From NCBI GenBank assembly GCA_963836085.1, contig CAWIHT010000014.1, forward strand, positions 296,773-360,772: 64,000 bases of DNA, written 5' to 3'. Position numbers and translations under genes: made by a program. Below are positions 6,296 through 62,115 of this stretch, piece by piece (position 1 is the first letter of the stretch; each line of letters starts with the position of its first letter). The stretch comes from an uncultured Actinomycetota bacterium. Its GTDB lineage: Bacteria > Actinomycetota > Acidimicrobiia > Spongiisociales > UBA5794. The notes below the pieces were generated by a model. That model saw nothing but the letters and a program-made list of their open reading frames with translations, did not search any database and was not told the origin of the DNA.

Positions 6296-6512
6296 ACGTC
6301 TCCCCTTCAGGGGGGAAGGCGAAGACACTCTTCGTCTCCCCCGCCACCAGGTGGGGGAGACGCGATCGAGCGACTGCTCGATCGCAGAGGGGCCACCTCA
6401 CCACACGGCAGGCCTCATCTTGGCGGTTCGATCTCCCAGAGCCCCCTCCGCTGCGCTCCGGCCTGGCGGCCGGTGCTCGCGCCTCCCCCACTTCGTAGGA
6501 GAGGCGAGGAGT
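6296..6512 (-). repeat. Composite GC-rich palindromic repeat element (full unit, reverse orientation) of the family also found at 18.0, 27.7, 47.5-48.7, 52.0 and 61.7-62.1 kb
   Basis: Contains the reverse complement of hairpin modules gcgatcgagc-N-gctcgatcgc, gtctccccc-N-gggggagac and cctctcccacg..cgtgggggagg, the ccggccgccaggccgg hairpin, and the closing inverted repeat ccccctctgc/gcagaggggg. Confidence 0.7.
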
Positions 6513-6519
6513 CGGACCT

Positions 6520-7410
6520 CTAGCTGCCGACTTCGATCCCGGACATCTTCTCCAGGGCTTTGACCAAGGCGTGGTTGCCTTCTGCGCCGAGGCCTTCGTT
6601 CTGGAGGGCCCGGTAGAGCTGGAAGACGAGGGCCGTCCCGGGGATCGGGGTTCCCGCAGCGTCTGCCGCCTCGAGAGCGAGACGCAGGTCCTTCTGCTGG
6701 AGATCGATGGTGAAACCGGGCCGCCAATCACGTTCGATCATCTGCGGACCGCGGTTCGCGAGCATCCACGAACCCGCGGCGCCACCCTTGACGGCGTCGA
6801 GCGTTGCCGAGAGGTCGAGACCGGCCGCCTGAGCGAACAGGAGCGCCTCGGACACCGCGAGTTGGTTCACCACGACGAGGATCTGATTGACGATCTTCAC
6901 CTGCTGGCCGGCGCCGACCGGTCCTACGTGGGTGATCGTCGTCCCGAACGCCTCCATGGCTGATGTCGCACGGGCGACGTCCTCGTCCGATCCGCCGACC
7001 ATGATCGAGAGCGTGCCCTTCGCCGCACCTTCGGAGCCGCCACTCACGGGGGCGTCGATCCACGCGCCACCGAGAACCCGAACTTCTTCTGCAAATTCGA
7101 CGGTTGCACCCGGGCTGATCGTCGAATGATCGACGACCAGCGATCCCTCGGAAATCCCTGCAAGCAGACCGTCTTCGCCATGAAGAACAGCGTCGACATC
7201 AGGCGTGTCCGAAACGCAGATCATCACAACCGAGCAGCGCCTGGCCACGTCGGCGGGCGAGTCCCCCGCCATGGCTCCGACCCCGACCAGCGGCTGCATC
7301 TTGGATCCAGTCCGATTCCACACCACAACGGTATGGCCCTTCTCTACGAGGTTCCTCGCCATTCCGGACCCCATGATCCCAAGCCCGACGAACCCGATCT
7401 GCTCCGACAT
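6520..7410 (-). CDS. NAD(P)-dependent oxidoreductase, 3-hydroxyisobutyrate / tartronate-semialdehyde reductase family
   Basis: MSEQIGFVGLGIMGSGMARNLVEKGH Rossmann N-terminus and a 6PGD-like C-terminal domain. Real start is the ATG at 7410; the ORF-track N-terminal extension is non-coding. Confidence 0.85.
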   Translation of the reverse strand: MSEQIGFVGLGIMGSGMARNLVEKGHTVVVWNRTGSKMQPLVGVGAMAGDSPADVARRCSVVMICVSDTPDVDAVLHGEDGLLAGISEGSLVVDHSTISPGATVEFAEEVRVLGGAWIDAPVSGGSEGAAKGTLSIMVGGSDEDVARATSAMEAFGTTITHVGPVGAGQQVKIVNQILVVVNQLAVSEALLFAQAAGLDLSATLDAVKGGAAGSWMLANRGPQMIERDWRPGFTIDLQQKDLRLALEAADAAGTPIPGTALVFQLYRALQNEGLGAEGNHALVKALEKMSGIEVGS

Positions 7411-7551
7411 CCACAGCCTCCGTATCTGGTGGCTCTCGACGGTACTCACTCCCGGGGCACCAAATGCGCTGGTTCGGCCTGCTCCACCATCACAATGGCG
7501 CCGCATCCGCCGTGACAGATCGACGGCGGGCGACGCCCGATAGGAGATTCC

Positions 7552-8683
7552 ATGTCGAAGGACAGCACAAGGCCGGTCATGCGAATTCAGTTGACCGGGA
7601 AGTCGATCTGGCAGGTCATCGGCGCCGTGCTGCTCACCCTCGGTCTGCTCTGGGCCATGGGGCAGATGCGCAGCCTGCTGTGGATGCTCATCCTGTCGTT
7701 CTTCTTCAGCCTCGCGCTCCAACCGGGCGTGAACTGGTGCGTCCAGCGTTTCGGGTGGCGCCGGGGATCGGCCGTGGGCGCGATCTACGGAATCGGCTTC
7801 CTCGGTGGCGGGCTCATGATCCTCATCCTCATTCCCGCAATCGCAGAACTCGCCCAGACCATCGGCGAGAGCGGCAGCGAATGGATCGCCAACGGAAGCG
7901 CATGGTTGTCGGATACGTTCGGCGTCGAGTTCCCGTCTCCCGGTACCGGAGATGACGTAGCCCAGAGCACCAGTCAGATCGTCGAGGACTGGGCGAAGGG
8001 AGCGATCGGCAACCTGGTCGGCATCGCGACCATCCGGCGTCGCGTTCATTTTCAACGTCGCGACGATTGCGATGTTCACGTTCTACTTCACCGCAGACGC
8101 CCCGCGATTTCAGCGGACCGTACTCTCGCACATGAGTCCCGATTCGCAGCAGCGGGTTGGCTGGACGTGGGATGAGGCGATTAAGCAGACAGGCGGTTAC
8201 TTCTACTCCCGCACGCTGCTCATGCTCATCAACAGCACCGGGTTCTTCTTCACCATGGTCCTGGTTGGCATGCCGGTGTCGATCGCCCTGCCGCTCGCGG
8301 CCTTCGGCGGATTCGTATCGGTGTTCATCCCGGCGATCGGCACCTACATCGGAGCCGCCATCCCCATCCTGCTCACGCTAGCGATCCAGGGATGGGGCGC
8401 CGCCCTCGTGGTGCTCGGGTATGCGCTCGTCTATCAGCAGATCGAGAACTACTGGCTGAGCCCGGCTATCAGTTCCAAGACCATGGCCCTCAATGGGGCG
8501 GTCGCATTCGGAGCGGCGCTCGCGGGTGGTGCCATCGCCGGCCCGATGGGTGCATTCATGGCGCTGCCGGTGGCGGCGCTCGTCATGTCGTTCGCTTCGA
8601 ACTTCACGAAGAGCTACGACGTCGTCTACCACAGCCCGAACGACGACAGCCCGGCAGACGAGTGGTCCGAGGCATCAACCTAG
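7552..8683 (+). CDS. AI-2E family transporter (PerM/YhhT-like); one apparent frameshift near 8030
   Basis: ORFs 7552..8175 and 8072..8683 are the N and C halves of a PF01594-like permease. They join by a single-base shift near GIAT/SGVAFIFNVATIAMF. Confidence 0.65.
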
Positions 8684-8782
8684 ATCGAGCAGCAGCCACC
8701 AAGCAGCGGCACGCGGTTCTGACGTCCGGAATCGGCGCAGCACCGAATGTGTTACAAGTACCCGACACCATGAGGAGATGCC

Positions 8783-9751
8783 GTGCCTGCTGTGACCGTC
8801 GACGACACGCTCGTCCTACCCCGAATCGATTCCGGCGCTCCCGATTCGACCGATCGTCCCGTGCGATCCGTGACGACGGGACCGACCGGTTTCGAAGGCG
8901 AGGGATTCCCGGTGCGTCGCGCGTTTGGTGGCGTTGACCTGGCTGATCTCGACCCGTTCATCCACCTCGACCAGATGGGTGAGGTCGAGTATGCGCCGGG
9001 TGAGCCGAAGGGCACGTCGTGGCACCCCCACCGGGGCTTCGAAACCGTCACCTACATGATCGACGGCACGATGGAGCATCAGGACTCGCACGGCGGCGGA
9101 GGGGTCATCACCAACGGGGACACGCAGTGGATGACCGCCGGCTCTGGGATTCTCCACATCGAGGCGCCTCCCGAGAAATTGGTCGTCAGCGGAGGACTGT
9201 TCCATGGTTTCCAACTGTGGGTGAATCTCCCGCGAGCCGACAAGTTCCTTGCGCCGCGATATCAGGACCTCAGCGCCGAGCGGGTCACGCTGCTCACCAC
9301 CCGGGACGGGGGAGCATTGGTGCGCCTCATCGCAGGAGACCTCGCCGGCCATCGTGGCCCTGGAGCCACGCACACGCCGATGACGATGTTTCACGCGACC
9401 TTGAGCCCCGGCGCTCGTCTCGAGGTTCCCTGGCGTCACGACTTCAACGCGCTCGCGTATGTGCTGAACGGCCGCGGTTCTTTCGGCGCGGAGCAGCGGC
9501 CGGCCGAGCCGGGGAATCTTGCGGTCTTCGGTGCTGGAGAGAGCGTGACGATCAGCGCCAGCGAGATACAGGAGTCGCGGAGCGCCGACATGGATGTGCT
9601 CGTGCTCGGCGGATTGCCGATCAGGGAACCGATTGCCTGGGCAGGTCCGTTCGTGATGAACACGCAAGCTGAACTGGTGACTGCATACGAGGACTATCAG
9701 GCCGGCCGCCTCGGCCAGATCCCACACCGTGGGATCGGAGGATTCGCCTAG
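8783..9751 (+). CDS. Pirin family protein (bicupin)
   Basis: HPHRGFETVTYMIDGTMEHQDS.GG motif and pirin N/C cupin domains; 322 aa. Confidence 0.9.
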   Translation: MPAVTVDDTLVLPRIDSGAPDSTDRPVRSVTTGPTGFEGEGFPVRRAFGGVDLADLDPFIHLDQMGEVEYAPGEPKGTSWHPHRGFETVTYMIDGTMEHQDSHGGGGVITNGDTQWMTAGSGILHIEAPPEKLVVSGGLFHGFQLWVNLPRADKFLAPRYQDLSAERVTLLTTRDGGALVRLIAGDLAGHRGPGATHTPMTMFHATLSPGARLEVPWRHDFNALAYVLNGRGSFGAEQRPAEPGNLAVFGAGESVTISASEIQESRSADMDVLVLGGLPIREPIAWAGPFVMNTQAELVTAYEDYQAGRLGQIPHRGIGGFA

Positions 9752-10020
9752 ACGGAACTCGTGGTCGGGTCGGATTCGGCCGAGATCTCAGCGGCCATGC
9801 GTTCGATGCGGGCACGGATCTGGTCTGCTTGCGAGGAGTCTTCCTCGACTTCTTTCGACGTCAAGCCGCGGAGACGACCGACGGTCCGTTCCTGATACCG
9901 CGCGGCATCCTCATCGTGCTTCTTGGACCAGAACGCCCGCATTCCCCACTCCTTCGAATCCCCAGCTGACGGGCATCCCGTGCACCGACCCCCACGGTCG
10001 GCAGGATCGCTCCGTCTCAT
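9748..10020 (-). CDS. Hypothetical small charged protein
   Basis: Open frame with a protein-like charged helical C-terminus; no recognisable family. Start uncertain. Confidence 0.25.
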   Translation of the reverse strand: MRRSDPADRGGRCTGCPSAGDSKEWGMRAFWSKKHDEDAARYQERTVGRLRGLTSKEVEEDSSQADQIRARIERMAAEISAESDPTTSSV

Positions 10021-10140
10021 GTAGGTGTCAGTATCCACGGCGCGCCGGCATCGCGTGAGACACAAGTCACGGGGTGCTCAAGGGACTAGTCCCCCAGAGG
10101 CTGGACCATTGGCGCGGCGGTCCAAGGACGGTGGGGTGGT

Positions 10141-10329
10141 CTACGCGGAGGTGTGAGCGAGCGCATCGTTCCGCCTGGCGTAACGGTCCATGTGCTCGAG
10201 ACGTTCGCGGACTCGAGCGGGATCGGCTCCGTCGAGAGCCCTCGTGCGCTCAGCCATCGTGCGCAGGCGGTCGGCCGTGCGCTCGAGATAGCCATCGTCC
10301 GCCTTGCTGCCCATCGTCAGGAATGTCAT
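10141..10329 (-). CDS. Hypothetical small helical protein
   Basis: MTFLTMGSKADDGYLERTADRLRTMAERTRALDGADPARVRERLEHMDRYARRNDALAHTSA; no family assignment. Confidence 0.25.
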   Translation of the reverse strand: MTFLTMGSKADDGYLERTADRLRTMAERTRALDGADPARVRERLEHMDRYARRNDALAHTSA

Positions 10330-10633
10330 CGGTATACCCCCGAAGTACGGTCCGACTGCCACGACGTTGGCTCGTGAACTGCCGTGGCTGCCCCGCTTGC
10401 TCGGGTCCATCGGCTGAGAGTCGGACGGTTGCTCATCTCCCTTTGATCGGCATTTGGCCAGCTGAGTAGAGAACCAAACTCGTCGCCATCGGACGGACTA
10501 GCTACCCGCGGCGACTGGATGGCCGTCGGACGCTCGGCGGGTTCCGCTGACTCGCTCAGAGAACCCAGACTTCCGTGAGAGAATTCCTCTGAGACACCCG
10601 TTTCTTGTCGCCCCCGGGACGTACGGTGTCGGT

Positions 10634-12478: not shown

Positions 12479-12500
12479 GACGCACCTCCTGTCTCTGGTC

Positions 12501-18027: not shown

Positions 18028-18090
18028 CAGCCCCCTCCGCTGTGCTCCGGCCAGCGGCCGGAACTCGCGCCTCCCCCACTTCGTGAGGGA
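18028..18090 (-). repeat. Partial copy of the palindromic repeat family (B module) between convergent genes
   Basis: cagccccctccgctgtgctccggccagcggccggaactcgcgcctcccccacttcgtgagggagacgaagg matches the reverse complement of the 47.5-48.7 kb B module. Confidence 0.65.
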
Positions 18091-18127
18091 GACGAAGGCG
18101 GTCGCTCGAGACACTCCATCACGTGTT

Positions 18128-27738: not shown

Positions 27739-27780
27739 GCTACCAGCTAACAGCAAGATGTGGTCTCGCCTCATCGTGCT
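27739..27780 (+). repeat. Short fragment related to the linker module of the palindromic repeat family, ~110 nt upstream of hoxE
   Basis: gctaccagctaacagcaagatgtggtctcgcc shares ccaagatgtggtctcgc with the tandem-array linker and gctaccagct..cagcaag with 51.97-52.0 kb. Confidence 0.35.
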
Positions 27781-31340: not shown

Positions 31341-32779
31341 GTGAAGAACATGGTGGTGATCGATCCGGTCACACGCATCGAGGGTCACGCGAAGATCACA
31401 ATCGCGCTCGACGATTCCGGTCAGGTCTCCGACTGCCGATTCCACGTGACCGAATTCCGCGGCTTCGAGGAGTTCTGCAAGGGTCGGCCGGTCTGGGAGA
31501 TGCCGAGCCTCACGGCCCGCACATGCGGGATCTGCCCGGTCAGCCACCTCCTCGCTTCGGCGAAGGCAGGCGACGCCGTCATGGGCGTCAAGATCCCCGA
31601 CACGGCGGTGAAGCTCCGTCGCATCGTGAACCTCGGCCAGATCATCCAGTCCCATGCCCTCAGCTTCTTCCATCTCAGCGCTCCCGACCTCCTGCTCGGG
31701 TGGGATTCTGATCCTGCAGCCCGCAACGTCTTCGGACTCATGGCGGAAGAACCGGAACTGGCGAGACGCGGCATCATGCTGCGCAGCTTCGGCCAGGGAG
31801 TCATCGAATCGATCGCGGGCCGCAAGGTCCACTCCCCCGGCATCCTCCCTGGCGGCATCGCCGAGCCGATGACCCAGGAGACCCGCGAACGCCTCCAGGA
31901 AGGACTCGTCGAGGCCCGTCGCACCGCAGAGGACGCTCGGTGCTGTTCACCGGCATGCTCGACATGTTCAAGCGCGAGGTCCAGGCATTCGGATCGTTCC
32001 CCAGCTACTACCTCGGCCTCTCGAACGACGACGGCCTGTGGGAACACTACGACGGCTACTTGAAGATGGTCGATGCCGACGGAAACGTGGCCGCAACCGG
32101 CGTCGCGCCATTCGACTACCGCACGATCATCGGTGAAGCCGGGCGCCGCGACTCGTACCTGAAGTCCCCGTACTTCAAGCCAGCCGTCGCACCCGCCGAC
32201 GACCCGCTCAAGGGCATCTACCGCGTCGGACCACTCGCCCGTCTCAACGTGTGTGAGCGCATGGGTGCGCCGGCCGCAGACGAGGCGCTGGTCGAGTACC
32301 GCGAGCGTGCAGGCGGCATTGCCAGTTCGTCGTTCTTCTACCACTACGCCCGCCTCATCGAGATCCTCGGTGCCACGGAGCGGATGGCCATGCACCTGGC
32401 CGACGACACCGTGGTCGGCCCCCACGTGCGGGCCCGCGCCGGCGTCAATGAGCGTCATGTGGTCGGCGTCTCGGAGGCACCGCGAGGAACGCTCTTCCAC
32501 GAGTATCAGGTCGACGACCATGGCGTCCTGACCGACATGAACATGATCATCGCCACCGGTCAGAACAACCTCCCAATGAACGAGACCGTCCTCCAGATCG
32601 CCAAAGAATGGATCGACGGACCGGACATCCCCGAGGGCATCCTGAACCGGATCGAGGCCGGGATTCGCGCCTACGACCCATGCCTGAGTTGCTCGACCCA
32701 CGCGATCGGACAGATGCCCCTCGTGGTCAGCCTGCTGGCGCCCGACGGTGAGGTCCTCTCCGAAGTCCGGCGTGGCTAA
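31341..32779 (+). CDS. hoxH: [NiFe] hydrogenase large subunit HoxH (group 3d, NAD-linked); one apparent frameshift near 31940
   Basis: N-terminal [10 protein letters not shown] and C-terminal DPCLSCSTH Ni-binding motifs; RIEGHAKI motif. The junction between ORFs 31266..32063 and 31940..32779 is at a GGG/GG homopolymer. A GGAGGA sequence lies upstream of the GTG at 31341. Confidence 0.8.
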
Positions 32780-33209
32780 CAGCCTCGTTGTCGGATACGG
32801 GAACGACCTCCGCGGAGATGATCGCGCCGGGCGGCTCGTCGCTTCTCTGATCGAAGAAACCGATCTTCCTGGCGTCCACGTCCTGTCGCAGTCCCAGCTG
32901 ACGCCCGAGATTTCGCTCGAAATCGCCAAGGTCGATCTTGTGGTCTTCGTTGATGCGAGCGTCGAGACCGCGACACTCGACATCTCTGCCGTGGGGCCCG
33001 GGGTCGCCGGACCTACGACGATGAGCCATCATGCCGATCCGGCAACGCTCCTGCGCCTCGCTCGCGACCTCGGGAAGATGCCGAACGAGGCATACGTCGT
33101 CTCCATCCCCGCCTCGAACCTGGACCTCGGGTTCAACCTGTCACCGAAGACCGCGCGGGCCGTCGACGAGGCCGTTGGGGCAATCGTGGAGCTCGTGCGC
33201 GGTAGCTAG
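32772..33209 (+). CDS. hoxW: Hydrogenase maturation endopeptidase (HoxW/HycI family)
   Basis: VVGYGNDLRGDDRAGRLV motif (GNxxxxDDGxG) and a conserved His near the C-terminus. The GTG start overlaps the hoxH stop. Confidence 0.7.
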   Translation: MANSLVVGYGNDLRGDDRAGRLVASLIEETDLPGVHVLSQSQLTPEISLEIAKVDLVVFVDASVETATLDISAVGPGVAGPTTMSHHADPATLLRLARDLGKMPNEAYVVSIPASNLDLGFNLSPKTARAVDEAVGAIVELVRGS

Positions 33210-42043: not shown

Positions 42044-42895
42044 ATGGAGAATGTCACACCCACCATCTTCACCGAGACCAAGGTCCGTGGATGCAACCCG
42101 AGCTTCGTCGTGACGTCAGACGGCGTCGTCATCATCGACACGCCGCAGTTGCCGACCAAGGCCGTTGAGATGCGCGAGATGGCGGAGTCCTACGGGACAC
42201 TCCGCTATCTGATCAACACCGAGCATCACGTCGACCACATCTTCGGCAATTACTACTTCAAGGGCGGCCCCACGGTCGTCCACCATCAAGGCGTCTACGA
42301 CAACTTCATGGTGGTCGGCCCGGAACTCGACCCGTTTGCGTACGCCAAGGAGGCGCTGCCGACCGACGATCCGGAGGGCGAAGCGATCTTCCCCGACCGT
42401 GACGTCTACTACTCGGATCCGAACAAGGGCCAGATCGTCTTCACGGGTGATCTGACGCTTCGCGTCGGCGATCACACCTTCGAGTTGCTCCACACGCCTG
42501 GTCACACACCGGGCCAGATCGCGGTGTACTGCCCCGAGGAGCGGGCGGTCTTCACCGGAGACACGATCTTCAGCGAGTGCCAGACATGGCTGATGACGTC
42601 GAACGTCGACGAGTGGCTCGCCGCCCTTGATCGAATCGGTGAACTCGATGTCGACTACGTCATCCCTGGACATGGCCCGATCACCACGAAGGCCTACCTC
42701 GCGACCCAGCGGGCGATGCTGATGGAGTGGAAGACGGCCGTTGCTGTCGCCGTAGCGAAGGGCTGGACGAGGGAAGAGACGGTCGAGCGAGTCGAGTTCA
42801 AGGACCGCTACCCGGTCGACATCGGCCAGGAGTACATGATGGACTACATCAACTCCTACAACGCCGGCTCCCTCTACGACAAGCTCACGTCATAG
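42044..42895 (+). CDS. MBL-fold metallo-hydrolase
   Basis: HHVDHIFG (HxHxDH) and downstream His/Asp ligands. Confidence 0.85.
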   Translation: MENVTPTIFTETKVRGCNPSFVVTSDGVVIIDTPQLPTKAVEMREMAESYGTLRYLINTEHHVDHIFGNYYFKGGPTVVHHQGVYDNFMVVGPELDPFAYAKEALPTDDPEGEAIFPDRDVYYSDPNKGQIVFTGDLTLRVGDHTFELLHTPGHTPGQIAVYCPEERAVFTGDTIFSECQTWLMTSNVDEWLAALDRIGELDVDYVIPGHGPITTKAYLATQRAMLMEWKTAVAVAVAKGWTREETVERVEFKDRYPVDIGQEYMMDYINSYNAGSLYDKLTS

Positions 42896-42930
42896 GGCCT
42901 GAGGTGGCCGGGGAGACTTCCTCCCCCACC

Positions 42931-44115
42931 GTGGCATGGCGCGGGGTGACGCCCGCGCTCGTGGCAACGATCGTCGCCATGCTGCCGAGCTTCCTGACCG
43001 CCGCGCTCATCGTTCAGATCGGCGATGACACCGGCCTGACGGTGACCGGGCTCGGCGCCGTCATCAGCCTGTTCTTCGGTAGTGCGGCGCTGGTGTCTCC
43101 GGCGGCCGGTCGCCTCTCGGAGCGGGTGGGGTGGGCGAACGGCCTCCGGACCTCAACGCTGCTCTCCGCCGTCGCACTCGGCGCGATCGGACTCCTCGGT
43201 AGCTCGGTCGCCATCATCGGGATCTCGCTCGCCATCGCGGGCGTCGGGAGTTCGCTCACACAGACGGCCTCCAACCACACGATCGCGCGATGCGTCGTCC
43301 CGCGTCGACACGGCTGGGTGCTCGGGATCAAGCATGCCTGCGTGCCGGCAGCGATGTTCATTGCCGGTCTCGCCGTTCCGACCGTCGCTCTGACCATTGG
43401 CTGGCGTTGGGCATTCGCCGTCGCCGCGGTTCTGGCACTCGCGACCACAGCGTCCATCCCACGGCACGAGGGTTCGCACACGCTCACACCCCCACCGACG
43501 AGGGCCGGCAGAGCTGTCGGGAGGCCAACAACTCCGCAGCACCTGCTGGTCGTGCTCGCGGTTGCGGTCGGCCTCGGCATCGGTGCGCTCGATCCGCTCG
43601 GATCGTTCTTCGTCAGCTACTCGGTCTCGATCGGCGTTGAGGAACAGATCGCAGGCATCCTTCTGTCAATCGGTGGACTCTGCGGGATCATCGCCCGCCT
43701 CGTAGCCGGACGGCTCATCGACCGGATGGCCCAGGCCGACTTCACGGTGATCGCCTCGATGATGGTGGCGGGCGCGCTCGGCATCGTCATCTTGAACCTC
43801 GGCGGCTACCCGGGCCTCCTCATCGGAGCACTGATCGGCTTCACCGCAGGCTGGGGCTGGTCGGGGATCTTCACGTTCGCGGTGGTGAAGGACAACCCGG
43901 ACGCACCCGCCGCTGCGTGGGGCGTTGCCCAGACCGGGAAGTTCCTCGGCGCCGCCGTCGGGCCGCTCGTGTTCGGCGTGGTCGCAGACCGGATCTCGTT
44001 CGACGCGGCGTTCTGGATGTCCACGGTTGCCCTCCTCGCCGCCGCCGGGCTGATCCTCTACGTGAGGAGTCAACGGCCTGCGATCCCTACGCCGCAGCCT
44101 GGGTCCGCTCTCTGA
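42931..44115 (+). CDS. MFS transporter
   Basis: 12-TM MFS. A GTG start at 42931 follows the MBL gene; the ORF-track start at 42727 is an over-extension. A paralog is encoded convergently at 44087..45289. Confidence 0.75.
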   Translation: MAWRGVTPALVATIVAMLPSFLTAALIVQIGDDTGLTVTGLGAVISLFFGSAALVSPAAGRLSERVGWANGLRTSTLLSAVALGAIGLLGSSVAIIGISLAIAGVGSSLTQTASNHTIARCVVPRRHGWVLGIKHACVPAAMFIAGLAVPTVALTIGWRWAFAVAAVLALATTASIPRHEGSHTLTPPPTRAGRAVGRPTTPQHLLVVLAVAVGLGIGALDPLGSFFVSYSVSIGVEEQIAGILLSIGGLCGIIARLVAGRLIDRMAQADFTVIASMMVAGALGIVILNLGGYPGLLIGALIGFTAGWGWSGIFTFAVVKDNPDAPAAAWGVAQTGKFLGAAVGPLVFGVVADRISFDAAFWMSTVALLAAAGLILYVRSQRPAIPTPQPGSAL

Positions 44116-45289
44116 GCAGCGCCACCGTCATCAGGACCGCACCGAGGGCGAGGGCGGCGCTCATGATGACCCATGCGGCGGTGAACGATGCCTCCGCCAC
44201 CAGACCGAACAACGCGGGGCCGGCTGCGGCACCGACGTAGATCCCAGTCATCGTGATCCCGGTCGCTGCGGCGGGAGCAGCAGGGTTCCGGCGGACGACG
44301 GCGAAGGTGAACAACCCGGACCAGCCCCAGCCGAACGTGAAGGCAACCAGCGAGCCAACAACAATGGCCGGATCGGATCCGATGGCGAGCAGCGCCATAC
44401 CCGCTGCGCCGAGGGCGAGGAACGTGGCGACCGTTGCCAGACCACCGGCCGTGCGTCGGTCGATCAACCACCCCATGATGAGGCGCGTGATGATGCCGAG
44501 CACGCTTCCGGCTGCGAGCAGGATTCCGGCCGCGCCCTCTCCGAAACCGACCTCGACCGCATAGGGGACGAGGAACGTGGCGAGTGCATCCATTCCGAAT
44601 ATCCCGAGCCCCGCGCCGATCGCCATCAGGACGAGGAGCGACATCGGTGAACTCCGAACCACTGGCGCGTCGCTCTTCTTCGACTCGTCACGCGCAACCT
44701 CATACGACTGAGGTGAACGCGGAACGAGAAGCACGGCCACAAGGGCGAGGCCCGCACACAACACGTAGACCCACTGCCATCCGAGCGGGATCGCCACAAT
44801 GGGGAGAGCAAGTCCGGCAATGGCAGTCGCCGCCGGAATCGCCCCATGCTTGAACCCGTAAGCCAAGCCCTGGTGCCGAACGACCGTGGTTCTCGCGATG
44901 CCGAGGTTCACGGCCGGGTGGGCGAGCGCAAGGAAGAGTCCCCCGATGACCGTCACAACCCCGAGCATCGGCACCGACTGCCCGAGGAGCGGGGTCAGCA
45001 GCAGCGTTGTGGCTGCGCCAAGGGCGGCGATCCGCATCGCCGGAGCCCAGTCCAGGCGTTCGACCAGCCGACCGAGACGCGACGAGGCGAGGGCCGACAT
45101 GCCGAAGAACGCCCCCACGATCAGACCGACGCCGGCCTCAGCGATGCCAAGAGAGTCGGACAGTTGGACGGCGAGCGCACCGGGGAGAAAGCCGGGGAGA
45201 ATGGCGACCGTGATCGTGATGATCGAGGCAGCGATCACCCTCCACTGGATGGCTGGTCCGATGGTCGATGGAGTCAGAGGCACGGCCAT
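44087..45289 (-). CDS. MFS transporter (paralog of 42931..44115)
   Basis: 12-TM MFS sharing FTFAVV..NP.APAAA.G…GAA.GP..FG.VA with the neighbouring gene. The 3' ends overlap by 29 nt. Confidence 0.8.
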   Translation of the reverse strand: MAVPLTPSTIGPAIQWRVIAASIITITVAILPGFLPGALAVQLSDSLGIAEAGVGLIVGAFFGMSALASSRLGRLVERLDWAPAMRIAALGAATTLLLTPLLGQSVPMLGVVTVIGGLFLALAHPAVNLGIARTTVVRHQGLAYGFKHGAIPAATAIAGLALPIVAIPLGWQWVYVLCAGLALVAVLLVPRSPQSYEVARDESKKSDAPVVRSSPMSLLVLMAIGAGLGIFGMDALATFLVPYAVEVGFGEGAAGILLAAGSVLGIITRLIMGWLIDRRTAGGLATVATFLALGAAGMALLAIGSDPAIVVGSLVAFTFGWGWSGLFTFAVVRRNPAAPAAATGITMTGIYVGAAAGPALFGLVAEASFTAAWVIMSAALALGAVLMTVALLRERTQAAA

Positions 45290-45364
45290 GTCTGCTTCAG
45301 GCTCCGACCGGGCAAGAGACTGGCTGGGACACGCGGAATAGACCTCTCGCCGGCGGTGCGACTA

Positions 45365-45378
45365 ATCTTCGATAATCG
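45365..45378. promoter_or_regulatory. Instance 2 of TCGATAATCGATGA motif between the divergent MFS and E1-alpha genes
   Basis: cttcgataatcgatgatacgg. Confidence 0.4.
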
Positions 45379-45470
45379 ATGATACGGATTCGGCCAGCCA
45401 AACACCAACGGAAGGGCCTGCGGATGCGGGCGCTCCAAGGCTCCCCCGCCGCCAGCCCGAGGAGGCGTCC

Positions 45471-46478
45471 ATGAACGATATTCGCGGTTCACGACCCGAG
45501 ATTGCAGACTCCGTCCGCCTGGACATGTACTCCGCCATGGTGCGGGCCCGGGTCTTCGAGAAGCGCACATACGACCTCTTCATGAGCGGACTCGTCAAGG
45601 GGACCACCCACCTTGGAACGGGCCAGGAGGCCGTCGCAGCGGGATTCGCCACCGCTATGCGCGACGACGACATGGTCTTCTGCACGTATCGGGGCCACAA
45701 CCACACCCTCCTTCGCGGTGCCCCCATGGACTCGCTCATGGGTGAACTCCTCGGGCGCGAGAGCGGGTGCTGCGGGGGCAAGGGCGGATCGATGCACCTG
45801 ACCGACGTCGAGCAGTACGCCATGGGCTCGTATGCCATCGTCGGGGCGCACCTCCCCGTCGCGGCCGGTACGGCCTGGGCGTCGCAGGAGCGGGGAACCG
45901 GGCAGGTGACCGTCTGCTTCTTCGGTGACGGCACCACCAACATCGGCGCCTTCCACGAGTCCCTCAACATGGCGGCCGTGTGGGGACTCCCCGTCGTCTA
46001 CGTGTGCGAGAACAACCTCTATATGGAATACACGCCGATCTCGTCGGTCACAGCCGTACCGAATCCGGCCGCTGACCGCGCAGCGTCCTACGGACTCGAC
46101 CGAATCATCGTGGACGGCAACGACGCGGACGCCGTGTATCGGACAGCCCTCGCCGCCCTCGGTCGGGCCCGCGCGGGCGACGGACCGTCTCTCATCGAGG
46201 CCCAGACCTACCGCCACCACGGACACTCAAGAGCCGACCCTGGCAAGTACCGCCCCGACGAAGAGGTCGCGGCCTGGATGAACAAGGATCCTCTGGTGAT
46301 CTACCGGGATCGGCTCGAGGGCATGGGCTTCGCAGCTTCCGATCTCGATCGCGTCGAGGAGGAAGCCAGGGCCGAAATCGACGCCGCCACCGAGGCCGCA
46401 AAGGCGTCGCCCGAACCTGGCGAAGCGGTCCTGATGACCGATCTGTGGGCCGATGGAGGTTCCTCATGGCGACGCTGA
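45471..46478 (+). CDS. 2-oxoacid (pyruvate/acetoin) dehydrogenase E1 component alpha subunit, TPP-dependent
   Basis: TPP-binding GDG…N region (FFGDGTTNIGAFHESLNMA) and the HGHS phosphorylation-loop equivalent YRHHGHSRADP. Confidence 0.9.
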   Translation: MNDIRGSRPEIADSVRLDMYSAMVRARVFEKRTYDLFMSGLVKGTTHLGTGQEAVAAGFATAMRDDDMVFCTYRGHNHTLLRGAPMDSLMGELLGRESGCCGGKGGSMHLTDVEQYAMGSYAIVGAHLPVAAGTAWASQERGTGQVTVCFFGDGTTNIGAFHESLNMAAVWGLPVVYVCENNLYMEYTPISSVTAVPNPAADRAASYGLDRIIVDGNDADAVYRTALAALGRARAGDGPSLIEAQTYRHHGHSRADPGKYRPDEEVAAWMNKDPLVIYRDRLEGMGFAASDLDRVEEEARAEIDAATEAAKASPEPGEAVLMTDLWADGGSSWRR

Positions 46479-47440
46479 CCTACCGAGAAGCCGTTGCGCG
46501 GGGTATTGCGCAGGAGATGGCGCGCGACGATCGCGTACTCCTCATCGGCGAAGATGTCGCAGAGGCCGGCGGGGTCTTCAAGACCACGCAGGGACTGCGT
46601 GAGCAATTCGGCCCACGCCGGGTTCGCGACACCCCGATCTCTGAGGAGGCCATCACCGGCATGGTGATGGGCGCCGCGATGAACGGTCTCCGTCCGATCG
46701 GCGAGATCATGTTCAGCGACTTCCTCGCTACCTGCTGGGACATCGTGGTCAACCAGATCGCCAAGACCCGCTACATGACCGGCGGGCAGGTTGAACTGCC
46801 TCTCGTTCTGCGTTCTGCCAACGGTGGGGGCGCGAGGTTCGGGGGACAGCACTCACAGAGCATCGAGAACTGGGCGATGGCGATCCCTGGCCTCAAGGTG
46901 GTCGCCCCGTCCAGTCCGATCGATGTGGTTGGCCTCATGGCGGCCTCGATCCGGGATCAAGACCCCGTGGTCTTCCTGGAGCACAAGGCGCTCTTTGCGA
47001 CCAAGGGCGAAGTACCGGACGGCGAAATCGTTGACACCCTCGGCACGGCAAGGACCCTTCGACAAGGCGACAATGCCACGATCGTGGCGCTCGCCGCGAT
47101 GGTGCCGAAGGCAGTTGAGGCGGCCGAGATCCTGGCCGCGGAAGGGATCAACGCGGAGGTCATCGACCCTCGCACCCTGGTCCCCCTCGATGTCACCGCG
47201 ATTGCGACGTCGGTCTCGAAGACCGGTCGCTTGTTCACCGTCGAGGAGAACCCCCGTCTGTGCGGTTGGGGCGCCGAAGTGTCGTCGATCGTCGCAGAAG
47301 AATGCTTCTGGGATCTCGACGGCCCGATCGTCCGAATAACGACCCCCCACATCCCCCTCCCCGCGGCAGACGCCATCGAAGACCTGGCCATCCCGTCCGT
47401 AAACCGAATCGTAGAGACCGTCAGAACCTCGATGCAGTAG
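46466..47440 (+). CDS. 2-oxoacid dehydrogenase E1 component beta subunit
   Basis: Transketolase-like pyrimidine and C-terminal domains; MATLTYREAV start with GGAGG 6 nt upstream. Confidence 0.9.
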   Translation: MATLTYREAVARGIAQEMARDDRVLLIGEDVAEAGGVFKTTQGLREQFGPRRVRDTPISEEAITGMVMGAAMNGLRPIGEIMFSDFLATCWDIVVNQIAKTRYMTGGQVELPLVLRSANGGGARFGGQHSQSIENWAMAIPGLKVVAPSSPIDVVGLMAASIRDQDPVVFLEHKALFATKGEVPDGEIVDTLGTARTLRQGDNATIVALAAMVPKAVEAAEILAAEGINAEVIDPRTLVPLDVTAIATSVSKTGRLFTVEENPRLCGWGAEVSSIVAEECFWDLDGPIVRITTPHIPLPAADAIEDLAIPSVNRIVETVRTSMQ

Positions 47441-47486
47441 GCGCCTGATCTTCGCCTCTGCCGTGTGTGTTGCCTCGGGCGTGTAC

Positions 47487-47558
47487 GTCTTCGCCTCTCC
47501 CACGCAGTGGGCGAGGCGCGAGCACCGGCCGCCAGGCCGGAGCGCAGCGGAGGGGGCT
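47487..47558 (+). repeat. Partial copy (B module) of the palindromic repeat family
   Basis: gtcttcgcctctcccacgcagtgggcgaggcgcgagcaccggccgccaggccggagcgcagcggagggggct. Confidence 0.7.
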
Positions 47559-47562
47559 GTCC

Positions 47563-47946
47563 TCAGCGTTCTCGATTGAGTGGGTCCGGCACGGACGCCG
47601 GGTCTTCAAGAGCACGGGCAATGAGATGGAGCGTGTCGTCCATCTGATCGAGGACGTAGTCGTCCCAGAAGCGCAGCACGAACCATCCGTTGCGTCGGAA
47701 CCAGAGGTCTCGACCTCGGTCCCGCTCGCGTTGCTTGTCGGTGTGCGTGTCGCCGTCGACCTCCACGATGAGCCGGGCTGAGAGACACGCAAAGTCCGCG
47801 ATGAACGGCCCGATCGGCTCCTGGCGCCGGAACCTGACTCCCATGTGCTTGCGCCTCAGGTGATACCACAGACGATCCTCAGCAACCGTCGGATCCGCCC
47901 GCATCTCTCGCGCAAACCGCAGCGTTCTCCGCTCCCGATAGGCCAT
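47563..47946 (-). CDS. DUF559 (Vsr/restriction-endonuclease-like fold) domain protein
   Basis: RRQEPIGPFIADFACLSARLIVEVDGDTH…DRGRDLWFRRNGWFVLRFWDDYV matches DUF559; embedded between repeat copies. Confidence 0.8.
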   Translation of the reverse strand: MAYRERRTLRFAREMRADPTVAEDRLWYHLRRKHMGVRFRRQEPIGPFIADFACLSARLIVEVDGDTHTDKQRERDRGRDLWFRRNGWFVLRFWDDYVLDQMDDTLHLIARALEDPASVPDPLNRER

Positions 47947-47996
47947 GAACGAGTCGTACCGCGTCCGTACTCCCCATTCAAGACCCGTGAAAGCCG

Positions 47997-48700
47997 GAGG
48001 CCCCCTCTGCGATCGAGCAGCCGCTCGATCGCGTCTCCCCCACCTGACGGCGGTGGAGACGAAGACCTGTCTTGGCCTCTCCCACGCCGTGGGGGAGGCG
48101 CGAGCACCGGCCGCCAGGCCGGAGCGCAGCAGAGGGGGCTCACGGGGATTGAATCACCAAGATGTGGTCTCGCGTGTGGCGAGATGCCCCCTCTGCGATC
48201 GAGCAGCCGCTCGATCGCGTCTCCCCCACCTGACGGCGGTGGAGACGAAGACCTGTCTTGGCCTCTCCCACGCCGTGGGGGAGGCGCGAGCACCGGCCGC
48301 CAGGCCGGAGCGCAGCAGAGGGGGCTCACGGGGATTGAATCACCAAGATGTGGTCTCGCGTGTGGCGAGATGCCCCCTCTGCGATCGAGCAGCCGCTCGA
48401 TCGCGTCTCCCCCACCTGACGGCGGTGGAGACGAAGACCTGTCTTGGCCTCTCCCACGCCGTGGGGGAGGCGCGAGCACCGGCCGCCAGGCCGGAGCGCA
48501 GCAGAGGGGGCTCACGGGGATTGAATCACCAAGATGTGGTCTCGCGTGTGGCGAGATGCCCCCTCTGCGATCGAGCAGCCGCTCGATCGCGTCTCCCCCA
48601 CCTGACGGCGGTGGAGACGAAGACCTGTCTTGGCCTCTCCCACGCCGTGGGGGAGGCGCGAGCACCGGCCGCCAGGCCGGAGCGCAGCGGAGGGGGCTAC
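47997..48700 (+). repeat. Tandem array of about 3.8 near-identical copies of a 186-bp composite palindromic unit
   Basis: Unit boundaries at 48001, 48187, 48373 and 48559 (period exactly 186). Each unit carries hairpins gcgatcgagc/gctcgatcgc, gtctccccc…ggtggagac, cctctcccacg/cgtgggggagg, ccggcc/ggccgg and tctcgc/gcgaga, with the closing inverted repeat gccccctctgc/gcagagggggc. The period is divisible by 3, which creates spurious long ORFs in all frames. Confidence 0.85.
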
Positions 48701-49038
48701 TCCGCTGCCGGGAGGTAGCGGTCGGGTTCTTCGAAGATGTCGAGGCCACGGGTGCCTGGGGCGACCCAGGTGGTGTGGGGGATGCCGCCTGGGACGAAGT
48801 AGGTGTCGCCGCGGTGATACTCGCCGGTCTCATCACCGATCTGCATCCGGACCGTCCCGCTGAGGACGATCCCCCATTGGTCGCCGTGGACGTGTTCTGG
48901 CACGACGATCTCTCGATCGGTCGCTTCATAGAACATCACAAGACCGCGATCTCCCGACGAAAGGTACGCGTCGAGAGCGACATCCCCGTCCGGCCTCGGC
49001 AGCGCTTTGACGAAGGCGGGGAACTCGTTCTCCATCAA
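48697..49038 (-). CDS. Cupin domain protein
   Basis: Cupin_2 motifs (VPEHVHGDQWGIVLSG…GDTYFVPGGIPH). Confidence 0.8.
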   Translation of the reverse strand: MMENEFPAFVKALPRPDGDVALDAYLSSGDRGLVMFYEATDREIVVPEHVHGDQWGIVLSGTVRMQIGDETGEYHRGDTYFVPGGIPHTTWVAPGTRGLDIFEEPDRYLPAAE

Positions 49039-51968: not shown

Positions 51969-52029
51969 GGGAGCTACCAGCTGCCAGCCACCAGCAAGAG
52001 GCGATCCAGCCGCATCTTCGCGCTTGAAG

Positions 52030-52108
52030 CTCCCAGAGCCCCCTCCGCTGCGCTCCGACCTAGCGGCCGGTGCTCGCGCCTCCCCCACTGCGTGGGAGAG
52101 GCGAAGAC
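52030..52108 (-). repeat. Partial copy (B module plus linker) of the palindromic repeat family between convergent genes
   Basis: gagccccctccgctgcgctccgacctagcggccggtgctcgcgcctcccccactgcgtgggagaggcgaagac. Confidence 0.7.
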
Positions 52109-52128
52109 ACGTCGGGCTCGTAGCTCTC

Positions 52129-57667: not shown

Positions 57668-57688
57668 GTCGTCACGCTTTCTCGATTG

Positions 57689-59493: not shown

Positions 59494-59530
59494 ATCAACT
59501 CTCAGGTCCTTCTGGGACCTGCTCCTATCG

Positions 59531-61282: not shown

Positions 61283-61643
61283 ACGGCAAATCTCCTTCCT
61301 CGACGGACCTCCGCCGGGACCGGCCCGCAACGGGCACAATCAGACTCCGACGCTCTTGTGCGTTCTTTGAGATAGCCGACTTCTGTGTTGGTGCTCCTCT
61401 CGCTACGTCGGTCGGACCGACCCGAGGCGAAGCCCTCGGAGGGCACGGCGCGCTCGAGCCTTCAATACGGGTGGTGCGGGCATATCGAGGAGGGCGACGG
61501 CAACCATGCTCACATCCCCAACACCGCTGGAAACCCAGGCGAAACAAAGAGAATCCGCCGGACGGTCGCTGGGACCGGGAGGGGCGTCACCGAGAGAGCC
61601 ATCACCATGGCACGGTTGTTCTCGACACCTGCACGCATCATCC

Positions 61644-61692
61644 TCGATAATCGATTACTTGCAGTTTACGGCCGAGAATCGCGATCCGTCAA
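61644..61692 (-). promoter_or_regulatory. Candidate sigma-70-like promoter (TTGACG-18-TAAACT) with instance 4 of the TCGATAATCGAT motif immediately downstream of the -10 (operator-like). It drives the PEP-utilizer/Mo-hydroxylase operon via a ~360-nt leader.
   Basis: Minus strand: aagTTGACGgatcgcgattctcggccgTAAACTgcaagTAATCGATTATCGAgg. The +strand motif tcgataatcgatta is at 61644..61657. Confidence 0.35.
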
Positions 61693-61704
61693 CTTGAGAT
61701 GAGG

Positions 61705-62115
61705 CGCCAGTCGCCAGTCGCCAGTCGCCGGTTCGGGGTCGGTCGCAGGCCTTCGCCTCTCCCACGGAGTGGGAGAGGCGCGAGCACCGGCCGCCAGGCC
61801 GGAGCGCAGCGGAGAGGGCTCTGGGAGCGCGAGCGCGCAGATGAGGCCTGGCGTGTGGCGAGACGCCCCCACTGCGATTGAGCAACCGTCTTCGCCTCTC
61901 CCACGCAGTGGGAGAGGCGCGAGCACCGGCCGCCAGGCCGGAGCGCAGCGGAGAGGGCTCCTCGCCTCGACACCACCTCAATCCTGAAGAACGCACCAGA
62001 GCTCATCCTCGCGATCCCATCCCCCAGGCCGCCCCCTCTGCGATCGAGCATCCGCCCGATCGCGTCTCCCCCACCTGGCGGTGGGAGAGACGAAGACCGC
62101 GACTGGCGACTGGTC
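61705..62115. repeat. ~410-bp composite repeat block bounded by inverted heptamer tandem repeats (ccagtcg x3 … cgactgg x2); candidate MITE-like insertion
   Basis: The left end is gcgccagtcgccagtcgccagtcgcc and the right end gcgactggcgactgg (its reverse complement). Inside are two B modules (61750..61820, 61890..61960), a linker-like segment and one A module (62030..62098) of the palindromic repeat family. Confidence 0.6.

Follow-up and report, generated by a model that had tools for sequence, protein, structure and literature searches.

The window analysed here, a stretch of 64,000 nucleotides, carries GC-rich palindromic sequences at about 6 to 8 loci, which raises the question of what these elements are, how they spread, and why a nuclease gene should lie among them. 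A preliminary description, made from the sequence alone, proposed a REP/MITE-like family composed of two modules, A and B, joined by a linker. The reading that we prefer, at a probability of roughly one half, is that the family consists of REP/BIME-like mosaics of triplex-type repeats belonging to an Acidimicrobiia-type lineage, and that a DUF559 nuclease would act on the units while recombinational repair spreads them.

Copies of the family in the window

The dispersed palindromic family is real, since every large copy of the preliminary description was recovered with blastn and nhmmer, and E-values of 1e-14 to 1e-74 in a 64-kb window exclude chance for these copies. The features are the following:

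6297..6328, minus strand: truncated unit, head GTCTTCG and hairpin 1 only (sequence reading)
6329..6392, minus strand: locus 1 A-type unit (nhmmer E 2.5e-17)
6393..6439, minus strand: locus 1 tail-to-tail linker L, 45-47 nt (nhmmer L profile E 3.5e-11)
6440..6510, minus strand: locus 1 B-type unit (nhmmer E 2.2e-19)
18029..18103, minus strand: solo B-type unit between convergent genes (blastn 82% over 77 nt, E 7e-14; nhmmer E 5e-16)
27739..27769, plus strand: possible relic, heptad-like GCTACCAGCTAACAGC, then 15 nt of linker core, AAGATGTGGTCTCGC (E 0.04-0.08 only)
47447..47487, plus strand: partial duplicate of head and C-arm, plus GTGTGTGTTGCCTCGGG (sequence reading)
47488..47558, plus strand: B-type unit (nhmmer E 2.6e-19)
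47563..47946, minus strand: DUF559 (Vsr-like PD-(D/E)xK) nuclease gene, 127 aa (Pfam PF04480, E 8.5e-33)
47947..47996, minus strand: cassette leader, TTGAAT-N17-TACGAC-N6-ATG (same pattern in L095, L096 and L097)
48000..48698, plus strand: tandem array, 3.8 x 186 bp (TRF score 1391, 99% matches; nhmmer)
51977..51994, plus strand: CCAG heptad repeat adjoining the 52010 copy
52010..52113, minus strand: extended solo unit, B (52037-52107) plus linker core (blastn 86% over 104 nt; nhmmer E 3e-20; fold)
61705..61729, plus strand: (CGCCAGT)3.6 heptad repeat, left flank of locus 6 (TRF)
61751..61863, plus strand: locus 6 B-type unit (61751-61820) and linker L (blastn, nhmmer)
61865..61888, plus strand: locus 6 A-type fragment, tail and half of hairpin a (blastn)
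61889..61959, plus strand: locus 6 B-type unit (nhmmer E 7e-20)
61960..62031, plus strand: locus 6 alternative linker L2, 72 nt
62032..62096, plus strand: locus 6 A-type unit (nhmmer E 6e-18)
62099..62113, plus strand: (GCGACTG)2 heptads in the opposite orientation to 61705-61729, which close locus 6

Locus 1 as a whole (6297-6510, minus strand) is a B-linker-A element plus the truncated unit, which adjoins the A-type unit head-to-head and matches positions 32-63 of the A profile weakly (nhmmer E 0.13); its B-type unit starts 10 nt beyond the stop of a dehydrogenase gene (6520-8079, minus strand). This B unit and the copy in the L050 group have locus-specific variants in common (head TCCTCG, loop GAA), and are hence orthologous. 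The solo unit at 18029..18103, with the hairpin 2 variant CCGGCC-GCT-GGCCGG, is kept in the relatives L014, L043 and L054. The site at 27739-27780, previously listed as a linker fragment, comes down to a match of 15-19 nt that is not significant alone; we regard it as a plausible relic, mainly because it resembles the 52010 copy in being preceded by the heptad-like GCTACCAGCTAACAGC string.

The duplicate of head and C-arm with GTGTGTGTTGCCTCGGG is a module that recurs ahead of B units and is also seen in L037. The proposed array of 3.8 tandem units was found by TRF at 48000-48698; it is laid out as A-type unit, 4 nt, B-type unit and 45-nt linker, repeated, with copies 1-3 100% identical and the last B overlapping the stop of a cupin gene (48697-49038, minus strand). 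In the extended unit at 52010..52113 the CGAAGAT of the linker core pairs with the head GTCTTCG, and in locus 6 the A-proximal part of L2 is an inverted linker core (GAGCTCATC...CCCAGGCC). It should be noted that the preliminary description overlooked the CCAG/CTGG heptads: the window holds only three CCAG-heptad sites, all three adjoining elements, and those at 62099..62113 sit just before the stop of the gene at 62116-63867 (minus strand).

Anatomy and arrangement of the units

A and B had been presented as independent modules, but they are two orientations and subtypes of one unit of ~71 nt (~105 nt including a 35-nt 3' extension), inverted paralogues of each other, and the A profile gives opposite-strand matches to B units (nhmmer). 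The unit runs from the head GTCTTCG through hairpin 1 (pyrimidine arm CCTCTCCCAC, purine arm GTGGGAGAGG) and a variable hairpin 2 to a purine tail. Hairpin 2, of ~30 nt, is variable in sequence and conserved in pairing. It reads CCGGCC-GCCA-GGCCGG in B. Of the 10 pairs of the A-type hairpin, 5 display compensatory changes; double-change cells number 40, where shuffles give 13.3 +/- 2.8, and pairing is kept in 88.9% of cells, a share that drops to 34-48% when partners are slid. The outer inverted repeats of the full unit (GCCCCCTCTGC / GCAGAGGGGGC) are present as described, and folding of the A-B doublet as ssDNA yields -57.3 kcal/mol with a z of -8.2.

The purine tail mirrors the purine arm, and the two covary over 98 units in three variants (GGGGGAGGCG with GCGGAGGGGG, GGGAGAGGCG with GCGGAGAGGG, and GGGGGAGACG with GCAGAGGGGG). 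Arm and tail match at 84% as a mirror and at 64% as a direct repeat in these 98 units, and the mirror match of a tail falls from 84% with its own arm to 66% with the arms of other units. The unit is a split version of the G/C-rich intrastrand-triplex motif known as BoxC, PIT or TMECO; the triplex is predicted from this mirror symmetry, the folding tools covering Watson-Crick pairs only. The preliminary description had overlooked the relation of the units to this mirror-repeat motif.

Repeats of the BoxC/PIT/triplex type, which include the BoxC of Bachellier et al., have been known from enterobacteria since the 1990s. They share with the present family the succession of pyrimidine arm, loop, purine arm and a second purine block mirroring the first, as well as an extragenic, multi-copy distribution, often as inverted pairs, that is tied to local genome variability. 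The window family differs in having a ~30-nt hairpin in place of the 3-nt second loop, a fixed head and 35-nt 3' extension, and BIME-like mosaics and tandem arrays. Given this second loop and the arms CCTCTCCCAC/GTGGGAGAGG, it does not match the literal TMECO pattern, CCCTCNCCC-N3-6-GGGNGAGGG-N3-GGGNGAGGG (PMC4666352). Later counts of triplex-type repeats cover more than 260 genomes and tie them to instability of the surrounding genome, and no in vivo triplex signal was obtained for TMECO by Holder et al. (2015, NAR; PMC4666352).

Unit orientation alternates, with head-to-head gaps of 3-8 nt and tail-to-tail gaps of 38-88 nt, the tail-to-tail linkers having the conserved core CTGGGAG-N12-GATGAGGyC. 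Head-to-head and tail-to-tail joining builds doublets, clusters and the 186-bp tandem array; B-linker-A measures 184-186 nt and has ~70-nt terminal inverted repeats. The repeats favour gene 3' ends, and window units begin 4-47 nt past stop codons. That most copies lie between convergent genes was an overstatement, as this holds for 3 of 6 window loci, the other three lying between co-directional genes, and for 22 of 43 clusters in all the DNA fetched, with 16 tandem and 5 divergent by rough gene calls. At the co-directional loci the element is forward with respect to the upstream gene at locus 1 and reverse at the array and at 61750-62098.

The family is by no means restricted to this window, being found in four Acidimicrobiia/Actinomycetota MAGs and in about 80 metagenome contigs; its B core is present in the four MAGs and at 85 metagenome loci, and about 170 units, all intergenic, lie in 0.7 Mb of related DNA. 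Nor does it correspond to a known ncRNA family in Rfam, whose covariance models at gathering score give 0 matches in the window. Occupancy varies between relatives: the junction at ~33209 is empty in the window and filled in L079 and L037, and L068 has a 450-nt insert where L030 is empty.

The REP/BIME-like architecture proposed at the outset stands, with short extragenic palindromes, alternating orientation, conserved linkers and a BIME-2-like array. As in REP/BIME and REPIN-RAYT systems, imperfect palindromes at gene 3' ends are joined by orientation-specific linkers, inverted doublets form a single long hairpin on folding, and the loops of the palindromes serve as IS targets; the units are, however, of greater size (71-105 nt) and possess two hairpins as well as a mirror tail, and the host is an actinomycetote, in contrast to the Proteobacteria of REP/BIME. 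The MITE-like label holds for shape, through the terminal inverted repeats and the existence of a gene-carrying counterpart, but not otherwise: direct repeats flanking 30 doublets were sought as target-site duplications and none was found, no transposase, DDE or other, is associated with B-linker-A elements, the gene-carrying counterpart encodes a nuclease, and solo half-elements are the commonest form.

The DUF559 gene and its constant neighbours

New here is the embedding of a DUF559 nuclease gene in the repeat family. It occupies exactly the tail-to-tail slot between B and A, its stop codon 4 nt from the tail end of the B unit at 47488..47558. Vsr-fold nucleases of the DUF559 family are very common, and the gene scores 112.9 bits against PF04480 (gathering cut-off 20.6) and matches PDB 3HRL at E 1.4e-20. 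Across 12 homologues, E. coli YcjD among them, the catalytic positions D51, E62, D64 and H68 do not vary, and dN/dS between the window and L050 is 0.10. The leader at 47947..47996 looks promoter-like, in which case the mRNA would be leaderless; a strict sigma-70 scan does not call it. The preliminary description had overlooked this gene, which separates the solo B unit from the array.

A cassette 86-93% identical fills the slot of locus 1 in L050, L055, L088 and L021, whose flanks match window positions 3291-10512, where the window has linker L, and at the E1-beta locus the cassette is present in the window, L017 and L065. It thus shows presence/absence at homologous sites and occupies different target copies, and L050, L088 and L101 carry the gene as a pseudogene. 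In B-linker-A we seem to have B-DUF559-A in a form that lacks the gene. These traits recall homing endonuclease genes, i.e. a small nuclease ORF with its own, here putative, promoter, presence/absence polymorphism, different copies of a repeated target and frequent pseudogenisation, although the putative target is a dispersed repeat and not a conserved gene; to our knowledge DUF559 is not an established homing-endonuclease family. In REPIN-RAYT systems, too, inverted units stand on either side of a small gene present in single copy, but that gene encodes an HUH/Y1 transposase instead of a PD-(D/E)xK nuclease, and RAYT genes are described as stably inherited and single-copy, whereas the DUF559 gene is found in different slots from strain to strain and frequently decays.

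Adjacent triplex-type motifs occur in 13 of 13 independent DUF559 contexts, including other phyla and E. coli ycjD, the sample of homologues covering a single subfamily, with identities to the query of 38% or more. Homologues 63-74% identical, in four other neighbourhoods, have family units on both sides, tails pointing towards the gene; for those 46-57% identical, in seven further contexts that include Steroidobacteraceae and Thermodesulfobacteriota, triplex motifs of the canonical or the split kind lie 1-90 nt from the gene ends. Canonical BoxC/PIT/TMECO versions, literal TMECO-type motifs among them, flank distant DUF559 homologues, and a TMECO lies 163 nt downstream of E. coli ycjD. The layout varies by phylum: tails are inverted in Actinomycetota, L110 has direct repeats, and in L102 the motif is confined to the upstream side. 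Most of the 417 homologues are carried by contigs <3 kb. Genomes of E. coli that are ycjD-negative still have 2-20 motif copies, hence the gene is not needed for repeat persistence. Holder et al. found no mobility-related genes near triplex motifs (PMC4666352), in contrast to the consistently adjacent nuclease gene of the window family, and in Caulobacter a DUF559 protein acts in vivo as a nuclease that damages DNA (PMC12907096). In our reading the repeats are the home and probably the substrate of the DUF559 nuclease, a purely correlational link; the adjacency can also arise from a selfish gene that merely prefers repeat clusters.

How the repeats may spread

In the preferred reading, the DUF559 nuclease would recognise and nick or cut the folded unit or the tail-to-tail junction, and recombinational repair from other copies would carry units, linkers or the gene cassette into new repeat sites, in a homing- or gene-conversion-like manner. 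Such a model would account for mosaic clusters, homogenised arrays, absence of target duplications, gene movement between slots and frequent gene decay; the three pseudogenes fit the life cycle of a homing gene. We know of no strand-transfer activity of a lone PD-(D/E)xK nuclease. A broader version, which we hold only tentatively, makes the YcjD-like DUF559 subfamily the cognate enzymes of BoxC/PIT/TMECO repeats and of their split BIME-like derivatives, in a second system of repeat and enzyme, independent of RAYT and reaching from Actinomycetota to E. coli; the nuclease would act on the folded (hairpin or triplex) repeat, and repair would spread, homogenise or delete repeats and shift the gene between slots.

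Two other selfish elements also use the repeat clusters. An IS1380-family IS is inserted in hairpin-1 loops with a CGGAG duplication, its TIRs being seen in at least 5 loci, and in L044 and L053 the space between units holds DUF222-HNH genes; much as IS1397 and ISKpn1 use enterobacterial BIMEs as landing pads, all three gene types, DUF559 included, might be unrelated settlers on ordinary REP/BIME-type repeats that owe their spread to an unseen enzyme (a RAYT elsewhere in the genome) or to recombination in the host and replication slippage. The frequent decay of DUF559 copies and the up to 20 motifs in E. coli genomes without ycjD agree with this, yet we consider it rather unlikely. Unit-bracketed ORFs within 1.4 kb are DUF559, DUF222-HNH and YjeF_N only, with no RAYT-sized ORF bracketed by units in about 0.7 Mb of repeat-bearing DNA. 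A GTAG-like 5' tetranucleotide next to the palindrome is the RAYT cleavage signal (E. coli TnpA-REP), and unit alignments show no conserved GTAG, the head being GTCTTCG. Finally, an association in 13 of 13 contexts across phyla, where repeat sequences differ and the motif type stays the same, is tighter than opportunistic insertion would give.

A terminator or mRNA-stabiliser role, as suggested initially, is not favoured. Action mainly in RNA, as 3'-UTR structures (terminators lacking a U-tract, or stabilisers) kept by selection, would suit the excess of convergent and tandem over divergent contexts, the proximity to stop codons and the very stable hairpins with conserved pairing, although purifying selection against insertions in promoter regions is expected to enrich 3' ends as well. 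We judge it improbable, since the window scan for T-tract terminators shows no T-run after any hairpin, Rfam gives no match, orientation with respect to the transcribed strand differs among loci, and the mirror-repeat tail has no RNA-duplex rationale; moreover, related PIT/TMECO motifs lacked promoter or terminator activity in E. coli in published work, as far as it is cited in PMC4666352. Very improbable, in our view, is a link by repair of deaminated sites in place of mobility, in which this DUF559 would be a solitary nuclease of very-short-patch mismatch repair, coupled to a cytosine methyltransferase, and the repeats would do no more than harbour the methylated sequence that it acts on (CCGG, GGCC or CCWGG, in hairpin 2). 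Caulobacter VsrA, a DUF559 protein, is functionally linked to a solitary C5-methyltransferase (PMC12907096), CCAGG lies within B hairpin 2, and the unit at 52037-52107 has two C-to-T differences exactly in that hairpin (CTAGG and GGTCGG, from the alignment). Hairpin 2 is, however, wholly different in A-type, B-type and other lineages (GATCGAGC, GCCCGGAC, GGCCAAGC and others), the constant neighbour of DUF559 genes is the triplex-type hairpin and tail, the position of the gene between units at different loci is left unexplained, and no methyltransferase gene is seen next to the DUF559 gene.

That the array is an assembly duplication, protein-coding repeats or another repeat class has a negligible probability, despite its 100% identical copies and the long ORFs traversing it: an independent assembly of the same strain (L009, 99.8% identical) also runs into the array, the MAGs L008 and L066 have arrays of different sequence, and the array ORFs lack Pfam support and do not keep their frames between copies. 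A CRISPR array was rejected, as the whole 186-bp period is identical between copies and there are no unique spacers.

The DUF559-repeat adjacency hints at a missing partner enzyme of a widespread repeat class, and offers a concrete hypothesis for the origin and spread of the repeats and for DUF559 function that is testable in E. coli. If true, the REP-RAYT idea of dispersed repeats with one host-resident enzyme gene would extend to a different enzyme fold and to non-B DNA. On the side of annotation, contig ends often fall in an element, and the family explains why contigs break and ORFs are spuriously extended in MAGs of Acidimicrobiia.

Repeat copies in the window and in related genomes

The window (65% G+C) carries a tandem array with a period of 186 bp, for which Tandem Repeats Finder gives 3.8 copies with 99% matches, copies 1-3 being identical. 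Each period is composed of an A unit, 4 nt, a B unit and a 45-nt linker, where A and B are two orientations or subtypes of one repeat unit of about 71 nt. The use of blastn with one unit, together with iterated nhmmer profiles, recovered the dispersed copies listed here, and array and copies together bear out the repeat family proposed in the preliminary description.

6297-6510, minus strand, dispersed copy (locus 1)
18029-18103, minus strand, dispersed copy
47488-47558, plus strand, dispersed copy (solo B unit)
47563-47946, minus strand, DUF559 nuclease gene
48000-48698, tandem array
52010-52113, minus strand, dispersed copy
61751-61863, 61865-61888, 61889-61959 and 62032-62096, plus strand, dispersed copies (locus 6)

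The linker fragment proposed at 27739-27780 is a plausible relic, since heptads of GCTACCAGCT type precede it, similar to the string adjoining the 52010 copy, but the match spans just 15-19 nt (E 0.04-0.08). An Rfam scan of the whole window at gathering scores returned 0 matches.

The repeat family is real and lineage-wide. Copies are not confined to the window: a 24-nt core of module B is found in four MAGs, whose labels are Acidimicrobiaceae, Actinomycetes or Actinomycetota and of which one (L008; such handles denote numbered comparison contigs from other genomes and metagenomes) has three tandem A+B units, and a shorter core of 20 nt in 85 metagenome stretches, nearly all true family members and many at contig ends. 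The NCBI contig JBAVXZ010000162.1 (GCA_049698555.1), 99.8% identical to window 42563-48303, terminates within the array, which rules out an artefact of a single assembly. Elements are moreover polymorphic in presence and absence. The convergent junction near 33209 (ORFs 32748-33209, plus strand, and 33206-34087, minus strand) is element-free in the window (33203-33231) and filled in relatives by a B-linker-A' cluster plus an insertion sequence (L079 and L037, flanks 88-93% identical), and L068 carries a 450-nt composite insert where L030 is empty. The empty site of L030 retains two CTGG heptads. A separate insertion of ~2.1 kb in the relative L054 (6026-8178), absent from the window at ~17260, lies close to the 18029-18103 unit.

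Unit anatomy and arrangement

B units are matched by the A profile on the opposite strand, hence A is an inverted paralogue of B. Both are built, in head-to-tail order, of the head GTCTTCG, hairpin 1 (CCTCTCCCAC / loop / GTGGGAGAGG), CG followed by hairpin 2, and the tail, (GCA)GCGGAGGGGGC; the inverted repeats noticed earlier at the outer ends of a full unit are explained as the tails belonging to two units in inverted orientation. In B, hairpin 2 reads CCGGCC-GCCA-GGCCGG, and in A-type units it varies by copy and lineage (e.g. GATCGAGC, GCCCGGAC, GGCCAAGC, GGACGAGC) with self-complementarity kept: in 5 of its 10 pairs both sides have changed, double-change cells number 40 (13.3 +/- 2.8 in shuffles), and the paired share of cells is 88.9%, versus 34-48% with slid partners. 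The tail is the mirror image of the purine arm, not its reverse complement, and arm and tail covary (GGGGGAGGCG with GCGGAGGGGG, GGGAGAGGCG with GCGGAGAGGG and, in A-type units, GGGGGAGACG with GCAGAGGGGG). Over 98 units, the tail matches the mirror of its own arm at 84%, versus 64% for a direct repeat and 66% for the arms of other units. Mirror symmetry, which duplication or inversion does not produce, is the hallmark of the purine-motif intrastrand triplex elements BoxC, PIT and TMECO (Holder et al. 2015, PMC4666352), from which the window family differs in having hairpin 2 where those elements have a 3-nt second loop. The unit is a triplex-type motif that is split and whose pairing and mirror symmetry are conserved. 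Counts from a strict detector of triplex motifs are lower bounds, since it overlooks many true units as well as the E. coli copy.

In the unit at 52037-52107, hairpin 2 (52054-52075) reads CCGGCCGCTAGGTCGG against the consensus CCGGCCGCCAGGCCGG, and its two C-to-T differences lie in CCAGG and GGCCGG contexts, as deamination of methylated cytosines would predict, an anecdotal case.

Concerning the higher-order arrangement, adjacent units alternate in orientation across ~170 units, with head-to-head spacings of 3-8 nt (some 18-22) and tail-to-tail spacings of 38-88 nt. Tail-to-tail linkers have in common the core CTGGGAG-N12-GATGAGGyC, whose sense relative to the adjacent tail is constant, and folds of the extended ~105-nt solo unit show the linker-core GAAGAT paired with the head. 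As ssDNA, the A-B doublet has a folding energy of -57.3 kcal/mol (z -8.2). Only three sites in the window have CCAG/CTGG heptad repeats (51977-51994, 61705-61729 and 62099-62113), all three abutting elements, and such repeats also adjoin elements in L003-L006 and L068. Tandem heptads, e.g. (GCCAGTC)n, stand on either side of elements in inverted orientation to each other. Set against established descriptions of enterobacterial BIMEs, the family has a BIME-like organisation, and the original REP/BIME reading was right as to architecture, albeit incomplete. No RAYT-like ORF bracketed by units was found in all fetched loci, and no target-site duplications were visible at 30 doublet ends, whose outer flanks tend to consist of CCAG/CTGG heptads or additional inverted repeats. 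A CRISPR reading was rejected, the array being without spacers.

A DUF559 gene inside the repeats

The minus-strand gene, an ORF of 127 aa, is situated between the solo B unit and the array's first A (48001). It matches DUF559 (PF04480, E 8.5e-33) and, among solved structures, the 'endonuclease-like protein' 3HRL (E 1.4e-20). Its stop codon is 4 nt from the B tail, and a 50-nt leader separates its start from the A tail. In L050, L055, L088 and L021, with flanks 83-90% identical to window 3291-10512, the cassette (86-93% identical) occupies the tail-to-tail slot of locus 1, adjoining a B unit whose locus-specific variants recur in the window copy. That slot holds a 45-nt linker in the window, so the cassette uses different slots in related strains. 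The idea that the linker is a deleted cassette is unsupported, as alignment of this linker and of an alternative one with the cassette ends gave no convincing homology.

Residues D51, E62, D64 and H68 are invariant. The gene is intact in the window, L017, L095, L096 and L097, and several copies are decayed, with an in-frame stop (L050), frameshifts (L088, L101) or a dN/dS of 0.63 (L065); dN/dS between the window and L050 genes is 0.10.

A wider survey comprised 417 DUF559 homologues (E <= 1e-10), most on contigs <3 kb, from which flanking contexts were picked solely for how long their contigs were. The motif is adjacent to DUF559 in 13/13 independent contexts; the gene resides inside repeats, and generally so.

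Repeat motifs at DUF559 genes in other genomes. Identity to the window protein is that of the best BLASTP alignment, except for ycjD (full alignment).
L095/L101, L096, L097: 63-74% identity; neighbour genes differ; family units with tails facing the gene
L115, L118: 56-58% identity; split-motif architecture as in the window family
L102, L110 (Steroidobacteraceae), L113 (Thermodesulfobacteriota, 47% G+C), L116, L117: 49-54% identity; canonical triplex motifs 1-90 nt from gene ends
ycjD of E. coli K-12 (L114): 38% identity; TMECO 163 nt downstream, a partial duplicate of the gene's own 3' end between

The leader TTGAAy-N17-TAynny-N6-ATG is conserved in L095/L101, L096 and L097. In several DUF559 proteins the C-terminal tail (PSP, PPSCPSP etc.) is encoded by the adjoining triplex motif, the ORFs entering the repeat (L102 1860-1899, L110 1850-1887, L114 4411-4425). 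In L110 the gene is bracketed by ~55-nt repeats (1446-1500 and 1916-1970), each a triplex motif plus CAAGCGCAnGGA, which are direct, not inverted, and thus differ from the Actinomycetota arrangement. The ycjD 3'-end duplicate (GTTCAG..CTGCCGAATATTCTCCAGCACCGTCTCC) in the ycjD-fabI interval, at L114 4290-4400, lies between ycjD and the TMECO at 4204-4245, and suggests a past rearrangement or the remnant of a second cassette.

Mobility functions were never found near TMECO sites by Holder et al. (PMC4666352). Our literature search, in a library without most subscription journals, turned up no paper that connects DUF559 with such repeats. The repeat family by itself is a variant of an already known type, and what could matter is its consistent association with DUF559, which is testable in E. 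coli.

Possible roles of the nuclease and the repeats

We infer that the nuclease would act on the folded repeat, after which recombinational repair would move or homogenise repeats and gene. In E. coli, phylogroups A, B1 and C have ycjD in place of the eefRABCD operon (PMC12817139). The gene is single-copy in the 3378 of 5426 complete genomes that have it, hence there is no sign of its current multiplication. Sampled ycjD-positive genomes have 17-34 motif-like places versus 1-20 in ycjD-negative ones, and Holder's table (PMC4666352) gives B2 strains 1-2 motifs versus 19-30 in A/B1 strains, a relation which fits the hypothesis and is suggestive, though confounded by phylogroup.

The main rival to nuclease action on the folded repeat is that DUF559 is one of several selfish genes exploiting repeat clusters, for which speak an IS1380-family element sitting in hairpin-1 loops and DUF222-HNH genes between units. 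Less favoured is a role purely in VSP repair; the sole functional DUF559 study found here concerns Caulobacter VsrA, which triggers an SOS response in cells without a cytosine methyltransferase. An RNA-level terminator or stabiliser role of the units, also less favoured, would suit the position mostly between convergent genes that was first attributed to them, which holds for 22 of 43 clusters by rough gene calls (16 tandem, 5 divergent) but for only 3 of 6 window loci, the other 3 lying between co-directional genes. Against it, no T-run follows any hairpin, and a scan of 47300-48900 for sigma-70 promoters and intrinsic terminators found nothing, so a canonical terminator role is unsupported.

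The IS1380-family element (DDE_Tnp_1_4, E 4e-45; terminal repeats CCTGGATCCGCGG / CCGTGGATTCAGG; L079 3265-4769 with L037 1-112) is inserted in the hairpin-1 loop of B units with a CGGAG duplication, and resembles IS1397 of E. coli BIMEs in being repeat-loop-specific. Its termini interrupt units at at least 5 other loci, and are seen in L101 ~3640-3900 (a ~230-nt MITE-like derivative), L096 ~2200 and the ends of L039, L040, L069, L072 and L080. The DUF222-HNH genes (REP13E12-like; Pfam DUF222 + HNH) lie at L044 5064-6218 and L053 1027-2235, each with a B unit directly 3', and related copies are present in L052 and L084.
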